The notes under the pieces were generated by a model. The model searched no databases, was not told the origin of the DNA, and saw only the letters and a list, made by a program, of their open reading frames with translations. A program made the position numbers and the translations under genes. From Harriotta raleighana (Eukaryota), in the NCBI GenBank assembly GCA_050575255.1, contig JBNZDD010013714.1:890615-954614 (forward strand): a stretch of 64,000 nucleotides of DNA, read 5' to 3'. Below, piece after piece: positions 2,169 to 38,962 of the stretch (within the stretch, counting starts at the first letter, position 1; each line of letters begins with the position of its first letter).

Positions 2169-2230
2169 CCAGAGAAAATGGTGGGAAGTAGCTCATCATA
2201 GTGCTGTATGTCCAATCATCTTCAAATTCC
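2169..2230 (-). CDS. Exon 7 (EFEDDWTYSTMMSYFPPFSL), last strand of the GNAT domain
   Basis: ttcattgcag| acceptor and G|gtaagt donor; 62 nt, phase 2 to 1. DDWTYSTMMSY resembles GCN5 KDYEGGTLMQC. A further exon must follow. Confidence 0.85.
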
Positions 2231-3102
2231 CTGCAATGAAAGCAATCTTTTAGAATAGACAGCTCAGGCTCTGAACCTCTCACCGATATTGGTGGAACTA
2301 TATCACAGTGAGAGCAAAATAAATTTGTGAAAAAACCTCAAAATATATAAAGCTCTGGGAACAGTATCCCCATATCAAACCAAGCCAAATCCAGGATGAC
2401 TGACCCAAAAAACACAATATAGTTTGAATTAGCAGCATCCTTTACAGAAACACAGCTGCTCCCCATATGACCAAATATGTTATTGCTGCTAACTCCCAGC
2501 TGCAGAAAGTTGTTCAAGATTGCTTACACTCAAATAAGAGAGAGAAAGAAATGAAACACTGGCCCCTCTAGTTTAAGAGGGGCTAAAGCCAGAATAGAGA
2601 GCTAAATCGCAATTGAAAGTAACATTTGATAAACCATTTAAAAAATATATAAGTTTAGGGTTTCATATTTAATCAACTGATTAATTTTCACTTTATATTT
2701 TTTCTTTGTTGTCACTTGGTTTTACAGACTGGAACAATAAGAAAAGATAGCAGCAGTGCTTACTAGTTGCTGAGCTGAAAGTCCACAGAAAGAACAGAAC
2801 AGAAAATGTGGAAACGTGAAGAATGTTAGGACTGGTGAAGTGAAAGTTAATAGGTCTTGTTTGGAGGGCAGCAGTTACAGTTTCAAGACTGCAAGTTGGT
2901 TCCCCACTTGTTACTTAAACCGTAGAGGTCGATAATTCACAAGCTAGAGGAATGACATGAAAGATGTTGAGCAAAGAGGAGCAATCAATCAGCACGTTGG
3001 GGGTGCAGAAGAGACGTATGATAAAACAAGAATCTGCTCCTTGCATCAGAACAACTTGCATTAACTTGTCGCTAAGTGATATGAATGTTTGCAGATACGT
3101 AC

Positions 3103-3227
3103 TTAAATTTTCTGTTTAACATGACATCGTCGCTGAAGCCGCAGAGAGTGAAGAATTTGATTGCACCGCTGTCTGCGTGAGCCAACACAGCATCATACTT
3201 GCCAACAATTGCGGGATCCCTGAGCAA
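3103..3227 (-). CDS. Exon 6 (LLRDPAIVGKYDAVLAHADSGAIKFFTLCGFSDDVMLNRKF), GNAT motif B
   Basis: tttgtctctgtag| acceptor and AA|gtacgt donor; 125 nt, phase 0 to 2. LAHADSGAIKFFTLCGFS resembles GCN5 LTYADNYAIGYFKKQGFT. Confidence 0.9.
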
Positions 3228-6129
3228 CTACAGAGACAAAACAGTATCACCCTGATTAGACAGGGACATTTCAATCCTAGCTGTATTCTTGCATATTACC
3301 TGTTACTCCCTGAGGGCGAGGCGGAGTGGAACTGTTCAAAGAAAAGGAAGAGCAAAGTCAGAGAAATGAAGATAGGATGCGCACTTTGCAGTGATGAGAT
3401 CAGTTGGACTCAAAACTTCATCTAATCCAATCTTGTAAATGTCTGTTCACCGGATATGTTATCTGGGTAAATAGGCACATTTACTATATGGCCTGTCAAC
3501 TAATAGTTTTGATGATAATCCTTGCATTTGATATTGCGTCTTATCGCATCTTCAAGGTGTTTCAAAGCGCTTTGCAGAACATGTTAGAAAGTGAATTGGC
3601 TGTACATTTTGTGGTTGAAAACTGAAGCACCACTGTTCACCATATGGAGCTTGGCATCACTCGTTTGAATACAACACTTCAGAAATCATGTCAGAAATCA
3701 TTGAGCTTTGTCAATGAAATCTTAGGAAGCAAATTGGGAGCTCAGTCTGGCATCAATGTGTGGCATATACATATGAGCCATTCACAAAGAGAAGTATTAA
3801 AGATACACCACCTTCCACTGAATAATGAAAAAGGTGGAAGTGGTGGAGTTGTTTGTGGATGGGGGTTGGTCTGAGCTTGATTTACCAAACATACACATGT
3901 AAGATTTATGTCCTGACCCAAGAACCAATAAGTATTTGGCGCAGAGGCTCAAAGCTCCTGTGCACAATGGGGGTTGAAGGGATTATTTGTCCAGGAATTA
4001 ACAGAAAAGCTATATCTGGCAATCTCCCCTGAAACGTGACTAACTACCAATGATCAGCATTCACATTGGTTCCTCAAACAAAACTTAGCCTGAAGATTGA
4101 TGTATTTGCCTTTCAGCCAATTAATTTCCACAAGTCACCTATTACTCAAGCAGACTAAAATAAAACAAGTTAAATAGTCTTTAGTTCAGACTCTGAATCC
4201 TATATTTGAGCTATTTCACCAAATCTTTAGAAAGGTATGGGAAATCATGCTTTGCAAATGTGTTGAGTTAGTGAAATAGGAGCAATCATTCAACCATCCT
4301 CTAGTTTATTTTGATATGTTTTTCCACTGTCAGAATGGGGATCCGCAGGGCAGCACCCAGAGCAGTAACTGACCTTAAAACATATTCTTGTCTCCAGGAC
4401 AGGCATGGAACTCAGTGGAGAATAATGACAAAGGAAAGTTAATGTGATTTTACAGAGAAAAAGACAGGATAGACAGCTGGTCAGTGTGGGAACACTGCCA
4501 ATTACTGTATATATCCGGGTCTGAAATCCAATCAATGTGACAATAACAATTGTACCTGTCTGGGCTGGTGGTGGAGGTGCTTCATTTAGACTCAGTGAGA
4601 GTTCACTTCCCTGTGTGTGAGGCAACTCCCCACCCAAACATTTATACCGTATCAGTGTAATTTGCTCCGACTACATTTCTGTCCCTTCTCTTGATTTGCT
4701 CTGTAGATAGCTGCTTCCCATCAATCGGATACTTTAAGGCTATGATCAATGATCACAACCCATATTCCCTTTCAACAGCTTGCAGTTAGATAAAGCCAAG
4801 TGACCCGTGTTTATCCTGACCATAAACATAGGTCACCTCATCGAGCAGAGGTGGTGAGGTCAGAGCCAGCCAAACAGAGGCAGTGGATGGTGGATTCGAC
4901 AAGTCCAGGACCTCTTCACACTTGGTGTCTGAGGTGAGGATCGAGGATGCTTGAGAGGGGACATGGAGAACTCAAGGGGTTGGGTCTTGGAGAAAGGATT
5001 TAGGTTTTTTTTTTAGCCATTTTAGCCAACTCCGTTCAAGTAATCAGGTTTGGGATTTGAGGGAGCAGAAGTGACTGTTGTACTAGGGCAAATTGGTAGA
5101 CTTGAAAACAGACCTGGTTTTCAGAGGGATGAGGGAATTGGAAGTTGAGGAGAGGTTTAGCTGCATGACAACTGCATCTAGTCATTGCGGGTGGAAGGCC
5201 AGAGGGAGAGAAGATCAAAGGATGAGAGTGTGTTTGCGAGGGTACTGGGCGGAAGCTTTTTCCATGGGCAGAAAAAGATTTCACCTCTGCTAATGGATAT
5301 TGTTTCGTAACATATACATATCCCTTCATCATTTTCAGTTCCAAATTGCAATGTATTTTCTACTGAACTCCTGACAATATATTTTAGGTTACCAATAATT
5401 TTCTAAAAGTAACGTTACAATATTTATGTCATCACATTCTCTCCTGCACCAGGGTCTGGGAATCTATCACTCCTGTTCTTGCCTAGATTCACTGGCTTCC
5501 CATTCCTCAGAATTGTCTGGGATATCTTTCCGACATGAAGGGCGCTATACAAGTGTAATTTGTTGTTGTGGTAGTATTCCCAAAGTGTCAATAATAATAA
5601 TCCTTGCATAGTGCCTAACCACGACATTGAGACACTCAAAAGTGCTTCACAGGATATACTGTAAAGTAAATTGACTGTACAGTATTTTGTGAGTGAAATA
5701 AAATAAAAATCAATCGAACGGAGTTGTATTGTAAATTCACATCTAGCCACTAGATGGCCCCATAATCCATTATTAAGACCAACTATTTTAAGGCTTCGTG
5801 GGATTTATGAAAAAATCTTTACTTATATGCATAATGTTGCACCTTGTCAAAATCTATCAATATACAAACACATCTCTAACAGATCAAATTTTACTTAACA
5901 GTTTCAACTATGTACCCAAAGATTTTAAGTTTTTAAATCTTCAGATCTATATACTGTAATAACTTCTGCAAAATAGAGTTTCATCAGTGAAAATAATCAT
6001 GTAGATTTAGAGCAAGGAATATTTCCTAATTTATAATATTCATTCAGTAAAATAAATACTGTATATAGTTTTGCTGCCATCTAGAGTTTCACTCTGTGAT
6101 TCTTGGTAGTTCACAAAAGTTCACTGCAG

Positions 6130-37490: not shown

Positions 37491-38309
37491 TACCTCATGT
37501 AATATATGCAGCATTGAAAAGAAATTCTTAACAAACTTGCAACAATTACATCATGCCATGAATCTCAAAAAATGTCATCACACATTATACATTGCTACCA
37601 TTCAACAAAAACTATACTGTAGCTTCAAAACTGAACAAAACCTGATGTAAGATCAACAATACTGCATATGTTATTACAAGTAACCATCCTGCAGAAATAA
37701 TTTGAAAACTGTAACCTAATCTCAGGGGTTCAAATGACTTCAAGCTTTTCTTTTGCAGATTACAACAATCTGAATTCCTTGATTACATTAGATTCCTTGT
37801 AATTGCTATTAGTTACTCTTTATTCTCCAGCCGATGTCATTCTGTAATCCAAATCATTTCCTTTTTTTTAAAAATGCAATCTCACTATCGAATCCCTAAA
37901 CATATTAGTGAAATAGTAAACTTCCAGTCACCATTGGAAAGTTTATGTATGGAATACTAAGATGTTATCTTTTTACATATCCGTGACCCACTGTAACTAT
38001 CAGATCTGAAACTGAGGAGTGGTGTGTAAGCAGACCAGAAGGTTAAGGAGGTGCTAGGGTATGGAGTGATCGTGAGGATATTGAAGTTGATCCATTCTGC
38101 AATAGAGATTGGGTGATGGGGGTTTAGTACCAGTGAGAATACAGGTGACAGGTTTTTAATCAATTTTATGAGTGGTGTAGCTGGGAAGACTGCAGCATTG
38201 AAAATGAATTCTTAACAAACAGATATCCGTTACCTTGACAAATATATTTTTTTAAAACTAAGATAGTTCTGAGAACTGAGTGGCAGGAAATAGCTCTATT
38301 CAAAGCATT

Positions 38310-38625
38310 AACAATAACAACAAAACAACTTGCACCTATGTAGCACCCTCCACGTATGGTAGTGTCTCTGTACTGATGTTCAGAGTGCTTAATAGTTGCA
38401 GAGCCTCACTCCCAGACTGGCACCATAAGCACCGTCGAAAAGGACGGCTGGAATTGTAATAGGGATGAGGAGTGGCAAGGCGATGGGGTTGAGTGAGACT
38501 GTTCCAGAATTTGGGGCATAGTGGCTGAAAACACGACCTCCAATGGTGGAGCGGAGGGTGCAAAGGACAAGCTGGAGGCCGGTGCCAGTCGAGCAGGGGC
38601 GCTGGGGATTGGGGCGTGAGGAGGT
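38310..38625 (-). mobile_element. L2 3' end fragment
   Basis: STIGGRVFSHYAP frame; aacaacaa tail. Confidence 0.7.
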
Positions 38626-38797
38626 CGGATTATTTATTACCATTTCTCAATAAAGGGAACAATTGTATTGAGAGTGTATTCCCATTTCAATTTATACCAG
38701 GATAACATTCCCTGTCCCCCACCCCGGGCTCCGAATGAACGTTGGTTACTCTATAGTTTGCCTCTGTGTGAGCGGAGCTGTGAGTTGCCTCTCTTAC

Positions 38798-38962
38798 CCC
38801 TGTTATGAATTTGGCTGCGTTTTTGAGATGAAGCAACCTGTGGAAGTCTACAATAAAGGGAACTGCGGTGAATGTGCGCTGCTGTTCTCCGGGGTGTCTG
38901 GGTCGAGCTGGTCCGCTGAACTGCTCCGGTGCTAAGCACAGTTTGACGCCGTCGGCGGCCAT
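38798..38962 (-). CDS. Exon 1 of uncharacterised GCN5-like GNAT-domain gene (MAADGVKLCL...LKNAAKFITG, 55 aa)
   Basis: ATG in strong context (AAGATGG) within the CpG island. 165 nt, ending at a GGG|GTAAGA donor in phase 0, which fits the phase-0 acceptor at 22520. Confidence 0.8.

Follow-up and report, generated by a model that had tools for sequence, protein, structure and literature searches.

Two of the main systems that mark proteins are acetylation and ADP-ribosylation; in the portions searched, the surveys of PARPs show no family joining their catalytic folds. On the acetyltransferase side the closest described proteins are GCN5 and PCAF (KAT2A, KAT2B); on the ADP-ribosyltransferase side they are tankyrase and its relatives, along with PARP-fold proteins without the His that binds nicotinamide adenine dinucleotide (NAD+). 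In PARP13 this His site is taken by Tyr (Y-Y-V), and the protein is listed as inactive (PMC7955679), and Arabidopsis PARP3 (C-V-E), which keeps the Glu and is without His and Tyr, showed no NAD+ binding and no poly(ADP-ribose) synthesis (PMC6701155). Here, we describe a gene of Harriotta raleighana on the minus strand of a window of 64,000 nucleotides (contig JBNZDD010013714.1 of assembly GCA_050575255.1, positions 890,615 to 954,614). Its protein almost certainly carries a GCN5-like acetyltransferase (GNAT) domain, a long helix and a PARP fold on one chain. A search with exon 6 returned one protein, P0001, the 'uncharacterized protein si:dkeyp-50b9.1' of Callorhinchus milii (627 amino acids, aa), and judged by sequence comparison the gene is the ortholog of zebrafish si:dkeyp-50b9.1.

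An earlier, sequence-only reading of the window had proposed a gene of seven exons coding for about 306 aa; the motifs it named lie on the minus strand. Resplicing reproduced these exons exactly, with six introns, all GT-AG, end phases of 0,1,2,2,0,2,1 and a frame of 919 nt (306 codons) without a stop. As a control for chance, 100,000 random AG..GT-bounded segments, matched in length to the exons, were examined and none gave an open frame. Exon 7 ends in a phase-1 donor and not in a stop, so the gene is incomplete at seven exons. Mapping of P0001 added 12 more exons. The full gene has 19, eight in the window and 11 in the next 13.5 kb of the contig (G000:C13714). The full frame comprises 1893 nt, encoding 630 aa followed by TGA, with AG/GT at every junction; an AATAAA lies ∼150 nt past the stop codon. 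Of 627 aligned residues, 576 (92%) are identical to P0001. The gene is present in a single copy, as all 14 genome-wide matches of P0001 sit in one locus. The GNAT part had been taken for the whole protein; the protein is in fact twice as long, and its C-terminal PARP-type ADP-ribosyltransferase fold had been missed.

The GNAT domain is encoded by exons 1 to 7 (window coordinates, minus strand). The coding part of exon 1 (38798..38962) specifies Met1-Gly55, where the GNAT fold has its first strand, matches P0001 1-55 and lies inside a CpG-rich stretch (observed/expected 0.84 for 38500-39500 versus 0.34 for the window). An upstream open reading frame (ORF) of 8 codons (38991-38965, minus strand), which has a purine at position -3 and stops two bases short of the start codon of the gene, could dampen translation. 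Exon 2 (22385..22520, aa 56-100) encodes GNAT helices and the strand preceding an insert. The acidic part of this insert, modelled with low confidence, is encoded by exon 3 (21283..21451, aa 101-157), its basic helix and the next GNAT strand by exon 4 (17246..17419, aa 157-215). Exon 5 (10069..10156, aa 215-244) contains Gln223, at the place of the GCN5 catalytic Glu, and the coenzyme A (CoA)-binding motif A (aa 234-239). Exon 6 (3103..3227, aa 245-286) covers the motif B region and exon 7 (2169..2230, aa 286-307) the last GNAT strand. Exon 8 (1138..1204, aa 307-329) encodes a linker and the start of the long helix, and intron 8 (1..1137) continues past the left end of the window. Beyond it on the same strand follow exons 9-13 (G000:C13714 890510-890426, 889799-889724, 887427-887359, 886346-886257 and 885707-885577) and exons 14-19 (884271-884121, 883586-883513, 880038-879968, 878924-878891, 877740-877660 and 877182-877138, with the stop). 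Exons 9-19 code for the long helix, roughly aa 319-404, and for the PARP-like domain, roughly aa 445-630. An alternative in-frame donor of exon 11 (+12 nt, G000:C13714:887359-887347) and an alternative acceptor of exon 13 (+21 nt, 885728-885707) make longer forms of these two exons possible by sequence; P0001 and the transcript contigs described below favour the short forms. No coding exon was identified at window positions 39000-64000, and none of 25 long ORFs of the window matched a Pfam family.

Splicing was followed in transcript contigs. In the contig sets searched, none with exon matches is on record as RNA; two are marked 'RNA?', both from one study of a related but different species, here organism A. 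An 872-nt contig joins exons 3, 4, 5 and 6 directly, and the 322 nt preceding exon 3 come near the combined length of exons 1 and 2 (301 nt). A 2030-nt contig joins exons 15, 14, 13, 12, 10, 9 and 8 directly, with a 67-nt unlisted gap at the place of exon 11; at the joint of exons 14 and 15 the listed ends are CT..AC. Differences at equal depth indicate that this contig extends to exon 7. Since exons 8-15 lie on one contig that reaches exon 7, a single spliced molecule of organism A holds the PARP motifs together with the last part of the GNAT region. In codons with listed differences between the contigs and this gene, 22 of 34 are synonymous, and 11 of the 12 amino-acid changes equal the residue in P0001 (the tables list part of the differences). 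Of the splice joints, for which the sequence-only reading had proposed a check by transcripts, those within exons 3-6 and 8-15 were thus seen in contigs of organism A. Apart from these, a contig of run X2 (L010:9365-9449) continues from exon 7 into intron 6 (window 2231-2314), which suggests an unspliced or alternative form.

Both folds are assigned from a predicted structure. An AlphaFold model was made for P0001 with 83 aligned relatives (predicted local distance difference test score, pLDDT, 85.5; predicted template-modelling score, pTM, 0.63). Residues 30-304 of this model superimpose on human GCN5/PCAF with Z 19.4-19.5, a root-mean-square deviation (rmsd) of 2.1-2.7 and 17-19% identity over 153-161 aligned residues; the human GCN5 overlay alone aligned 159 of 164 residues (Z 19.5, rmsd 2.6). 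The GCN5/PCAF-like fold named in the sequence-only reading is therefore borne out by the model as well as by profile search. An insert of ∼95 aa splits the GNAT domain and consists of a stretch rich in acidic residues (20 Asp/Glu in aa 101-160), modelled with low confidence, and of the basic helix. Residues 316-401 form a single helix of 86 residues with heptad bias (0.65 hydrophobic in the best register), and residues 401-441 are disordered in the model. A homodimer model of two copies of P0001 28-400, predicted without use of an alignment, scored 0.02, which speaks neither for nor against pairing. Residues 442-627 match tankyrase catalytic domains (Z 18-19, rmsd 2.2-3.3). Further support for a PARP-like fold is provided by Foldseek, with an expectation value (E) of 1.6e-8 to PARP1 and TM scores of 0.67-0.74 (target length) to tankyrase and PARP13. 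In a fold search of 48,161 representatives, GCN5 ranked first among GNATs (Z 17.5-17.7), followed by KKT23 (15.1) and NatD (14.9); among PARPs tankyrase 2 was first (Z 18.5), followed by RCD1 (16.8), PARP10 (16.7), PARP13 (16.5) and TASOR (12.8).

Sequence profiles gave a similar picture. The best GNAT match in the PDB was Tetrahymena GCN5 (E 1.8e-4), and the PARP part matched PARP4 (E 3e-8) and tankyrase (4e-8), also PARP10 and PARP13. Pfam searches with single exons gave weak GNAT matches from exon 5 only. Of 83 members, 46 matched the Pfam PARP family PF00644 (E ≤0.01, best 6e-16), P0001 itself scoring below the cut-off (15.6 vs 26.7 bits). Clusters returned by a language-model atlas bear both Pfam tags, GNAT and PARP; one cluster bearing both consists mostly of rotifers.

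Residues of the PARP-like active site were counted in 57 domains of the family. His is never found at the NAD-binding position (H-G-S/T motif; 0/57); instead Tyr (29/57) or Phe (17/57) occurs there, and the window protein reads Tyr508-Cys509-Gly510. The following site is mostly Cys (35/57), less often Gly (8) or Ala (7). The remaining triad residues are largely kept, Tyr541 in 51 and Glu608 in 54 of the domains, giving a Tyr/Phe-Tyr-Glu triad. The nicotinamide-stacking site is aromatic in 45 domains (Phe 37, Tyr 8), and a Gly-Arg common with tankyrase occurs in 53. Ala549 (54/57) aligns with a Ser of tankyrase, PARP4 and PARP10, which we take to be the nicotinamide-binding Ser that follows the triad Tyr. 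The register at the His site was set by HMMER alignments to tankyrase and PARP10, and by aligning a distant member to tankyrase 2 and, ungapped, to PARP13. A Cys-Tyr-Glu register for the triad was considered and dropped after the tankyrase, PARP10 and PARP13 alignments. From these residues the PARP-like domain is likely inactive as an enzyme.

In 110 GNAT domains of the family, the CoA-binding motif A (R/Q-x-x-G-x-G/A) is kept, with Arg/Gln in 107, the first Gly in 81 and the last Gly in 109. Profile alignments place Gln223 opposite a Glu of Tetrahymena GCN5, presumably the catalytic base. Other polar residues are conserved family-wide, namely Asp278 and Arg230 (103/110 each), Asp263 (99/110) and Asp256 (94/110), and by conservation any of these could replace the GCN5 base.

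A profile search returned 730 representatives at E ≤0.001, 277 at 1e-10 and 99 at 1e-30; of the 730, the best 150 were covered. Both domains were found in 41 of 162 proteins scanned, many of the others being fragments. The 22 named taxa with both domains are three cartilaginous fish, Latimeria, six amphibians, Branchiostoma, Patiria, five molluscs, Macrostomum, Actinia, Pleurobrachia, Pigoraptor and Cyanophora. GNAT and helix only were found in the vertebrates Polyodon, Acipenser, Lepisosteus, Amia, Oncorhynchus and lampreys, and in Styela, Limulus, Centruroides, Calicophoron, Picozoa and Carpediemonas. In 16 of 17 tested proteins (from ray-finned fish, lampreys, Styela, chelicerates, a trematode, Picozoa, Carpediemonas and others) a PARP match above noise was absent. 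No amniote was found among the 37 named proteins, and among 124 unnamed ones 22 have their best match in a vertebrate; the gene was likely lost in amniotes, a loss that is unproven. A tree of the GNAT domain (110 rows of ≥95 aa, 112 columns, shorter fragments excluded) roughly tracks species groups and contains a well-supported vertebrate clade of 24 rows. In both trees the window protein is sister to P0001, which makes a chimaera the likely host. The simplest reading, made on trees without a root, would be one old GNAT-PARP fusion followed by repeated loss of the PARP part. One protein of 1199 aa, P0061, has the family helix and PARP-like domain joined to a further segment, and its PARP part is near that of amphioxus; it is likely a mis-merged model, and the extra segment presumably derives from a DIRS-type retroelement reverse transcriptase, which it resembles.

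We favour the view, about as probable as its contrary, that the gene encodes a GCN5-fold protein acyltransferase that has a catalytic arrangement of its own and carries a coiled-coil stalk and a non-catalytic PARP-fold binding module. The intact motif A suggests that the GCN5-fold domain would bind acyl-CoA, and the nearest folds, which are protein lysine acetyltransferases, point to transfer of the acyl group to protein lysine. The domain would use a base other than the GCN5 glutamate, or none. The long helix is predicted to form a coiled coil. With His replaced by Tyr or Phe, Gly by Cys and Ser by Ala, the PARP fold would bind NAD poorly, as in inactive PARP13, and may instead bind a partner, nucleic acid or ADP-ribose with no NAD turnover. 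Its role seems accessory, because the proteins of many lineages lack the module, whereas GNAT and helix are always retained.

Several observations weigh against this view. The PARP-like domain keeps its catalytic Glu, its triad Tyr and two Arg (53/57); PARP13, by comparison, is without the catalytic Glu. The domain is also about as conserved as the GNAT domain, with identities (PARP-like vs GNAT) of 0.97 vs 0.94 for Callorhinchus, 0.48 vs 0.43 for Actinia and family means of 0.37 vs 0.42. Sequence alignments and a strand end of the model, not a residue-level structural overlay, define the His register; His is absent from all 57 domains in either register. The PARP-less forms are gene predictions, some of which may be truncated. 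In the GNAT domain, only 5 of 110 members have Glu at the base site, against Gln in 41, His in 28, Asp in 12 and Tyr in 8. In yeast, the E173Q exchange is reported to cut kcat ∼360-fold (PMC5575660), so with Gln at this site the GNAT may be slow or dead. Finally, the transcript contigs stem from another species and one study, are marked 'RNA?', and cover joints within exons 3-6 and 8-15, not 1-2, 2-3, 6-7 and 15-19.

The retained residues of the PARP-like domain raise the alternative that it works as an ADP-ribosyltransferase whose donor pocket is reshaped and whose triad is Tyr/Phe-Tyr-Glu; one chain would then both acetylate and ADP-ribosylate. We consider this rather doubtful. Glu608, Tyr541, the stacking aromatic and the tankyrase-like Gly-Arg are what such an enzyme would keep, but His is missing throughout and two more donor-site positions are changed (Gly to Cys, Ser to Ala). 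Conservation close to that of the GNAT domain fits a working enzyme, and identities of the two domains correlate across 37 proteins (Mantel r 0.79, with none of 9,999 permutations as high), although kinship alone would yield a high r; the domain is nevertheless missing from the proteins of many lineages. In the part of the literature consulted, an AtPARP1 mutant without His and Tyr still bound NAD+ (PMC6701155), whereas the His-less PARP-fold proteins PARP13, AtPARP3, TASOR and RCD1 are reported inactive. A broader form of this alternative has the family predate the animal-glaucophyte split, with an acetyltransferase and a working Tyr/Phe-Tyr-Glu ADP-ribosyltransferase on one chain, form an unlisted PARP clade and be lost whole in amniotes. 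This we regard as unlikely; if true, the ancient family would link NAD+ signalling to acetyl-CoA signalling on a single substrate, with sperm or flagella as a possible site.

Alternatively, both enzyme folds may be dead, so that the GNAT domain would bind CoA or an acyl-lysine peptide but turn over neither, protein, nucleic acid or ADP-ribose would be bound by the PARP fold, and the helix would tether both in a complex. Gln at the place of the GCN5 base, the change that cripples yeast Gcn5, would agree with such a scaffold, as would the loss of His from the PARP fold and an 86-residue helix kept across the family. Motif A, however, is nearly invariant, and one of the conserved residues Asp263, Asp278, Asp256 and Arg230, or the His found at the base site of 28 members, could act as base; many GNATs function without a catalytic Glu. 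We think a twofold pseudo-enzyme improbable. A stand-alone GNAT of ∼306 aa, with the PARP-like exons belonging to a separate downstream gene, would agree with predicted orthologs of ray-finned fish, lamprey and others that stop after the long helix, but is scarcely credible given that exon 7 has no stop, phases continue over 12 exons, one contig carries exons 8-15 and 41 of 162 proteins have both domains.

The preferred reading, an acetyltransferase with a non-catalytic PARP module, comes with a weak lead as to where it acts, namely in sperm or flagellated cells. The named non-animal carriers of the family are, as we assume, flagellates. One study of zebrafish reports the gene among the 25 that are most raised in male-like juveniles, where it is listed alongside genes of meiosis and flagella (10.1101/650218). 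Against this lead, amniotes possess flagella and yet seem to be without the gene.

The GNAT-PARP architecture is already visible in databases under the placeholder name, as Pfam GNAT and PARP tags are present on many entries of si:dkeyp-50b9.1 orthologs, and as far as we found it has not been described. In the literature searched, the gene name occurred in one paper's gene list only and six ortholog locus ids in none. Searches pairing PARP and GNAT terms, with most subscription papers outside their reach, returned no description of the family. GCN5 has no match in the passages searched of two eukaryote-wide PARP surveys (PMC2964712 and PMC4245714, supplements not covered), and no GNAT-PARP family appears in the searched parts of PMC10450202, PMC11377751 and 10.64898/2026.07.25.740670. 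In a survey of zebrafish and mouse histone acetyltransferases (PMC4133703) the gene is absent from the text and one supplement. A single 'gnat' match in the searched part of a fungal PARP preprint proved to be 'Gnathostomata'. Thus the distinct, poorly characterised GNAT family of the sequence-only reading stands as a separate and uncharacterised one, with no amniote member found, although its predicted orthologs already bear the name si:dkeyp-50b9.1.

The family is old, ranging from a glaucophyte, a filasterean, a ctenophore and a cnidarian to amphibians, and both active sites deviate from the textbook at the same places family-wide. It poses the questions of whether a PARP fold that keeps Tyr and Glu works without His, and by what means a GCN5 fold manages without its Glu. 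For a clean comparison, nature offers axolotl, frogs and sea anemone, whose forms have the module, and ray-finned fish, whose forms do not. Because the family seems to be absent from amniotes, its medical relevance is limited, and surveys centred on humans may have overlooked it for this reason.

Several further features were seen at the locus. Near-perfect two-copy tandem duplications lie at window positions 13270-13409, 27545-27907 and 40758-40875; the first two straddle the two single N bases of the window and are therefore likely scaffolding artefacts. A second CpG-rich stretch (52000-53000, observed/expected 0.78) holds a tandem repeat of 40-44 bp. Sequence fragments at 55809-56435, 57114-57431 and 62403-62772 and in several introns had no Pfam match and resemble what we take to be degraded retroelements of the LINE type. 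Contig depth is very high over parts of introns 3 to 5, which points to abundant repeats. An Acipenser ruthenus model (P0014) has a TINF2-like part and a tyrosine aminotransferase fused to the gene and likely is a merged model marking sturgeon neighbours; tyrosine aminotransferase exons were not found in 125 kb upstream or 80 kb downstream of the gene studied here.

Among known systems, GCN5/PCAF provide the best structural and PDB sequence match of the GNAT domain and share motif A. The protein described here differs from them by its 17-19% identity, the ∼95-aa insert and a catalytic Glu that is mostly Gln or His, and it carries the long helix and PARP fold in place of PCAF_N and bromodomain, neither of which was found in a Pfam scan of P0001 or among the 25 families shown for the 83 members. 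PCAF_N exons occur on two other contigs of the genome, likely KAT2A and KAT2B, in line with the earlier claims that the gene has no PCAF N-terminal domain and is neither of the two. The zebrafish ortholog differs in that ray-finned fish proteins were found without the PARP-like domain. The acetyltransferase domain of Trypanosoma KKT23, known here by its PDB title, is the next-best GNAT fold after GCN5 (Z 15.1) and likewise GCN5-like outside SAGA; its sequence match is weak (a PDB N-acetyltransferase entry at E 0.13, which we take to be KKT23) and offers no evidence of orthology. With the ARTD/PARP enzymes tankyrase 1/2, PARP4 and PARP10 the family shares the fold, the profile matches, the triad Tyr and Glu and the C-terminal placement; it differs by the consistent lack of His, by two donor-pocket changes, of Gly to Cys and of Ser to Ala, and by having a GNAT as partner. 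The pseudo-PARPs PARP13/ZAP, Arabidopsis PARP3, RCD1/SRO, TASOR and LRRC9 likewise have a PARP fold without His, and PARP13 shares Tyr at this site in an ungapped alignment. They show no sign of orthology and have other partner domains; the CCCH zinc finger and WWE domains of PARP13/ZAP were not found in the Pfam scan of P0001 or among the 25 families shown for the 83 members. Unlike PARP13 (Y-Y-V) and AtPARP3 (C-V-E), the family described here keeps both the triad Tyr and the Glu. What has gone unreported, as far as found, is an old fusion of GNAT and PARP in which both active sites are altered.

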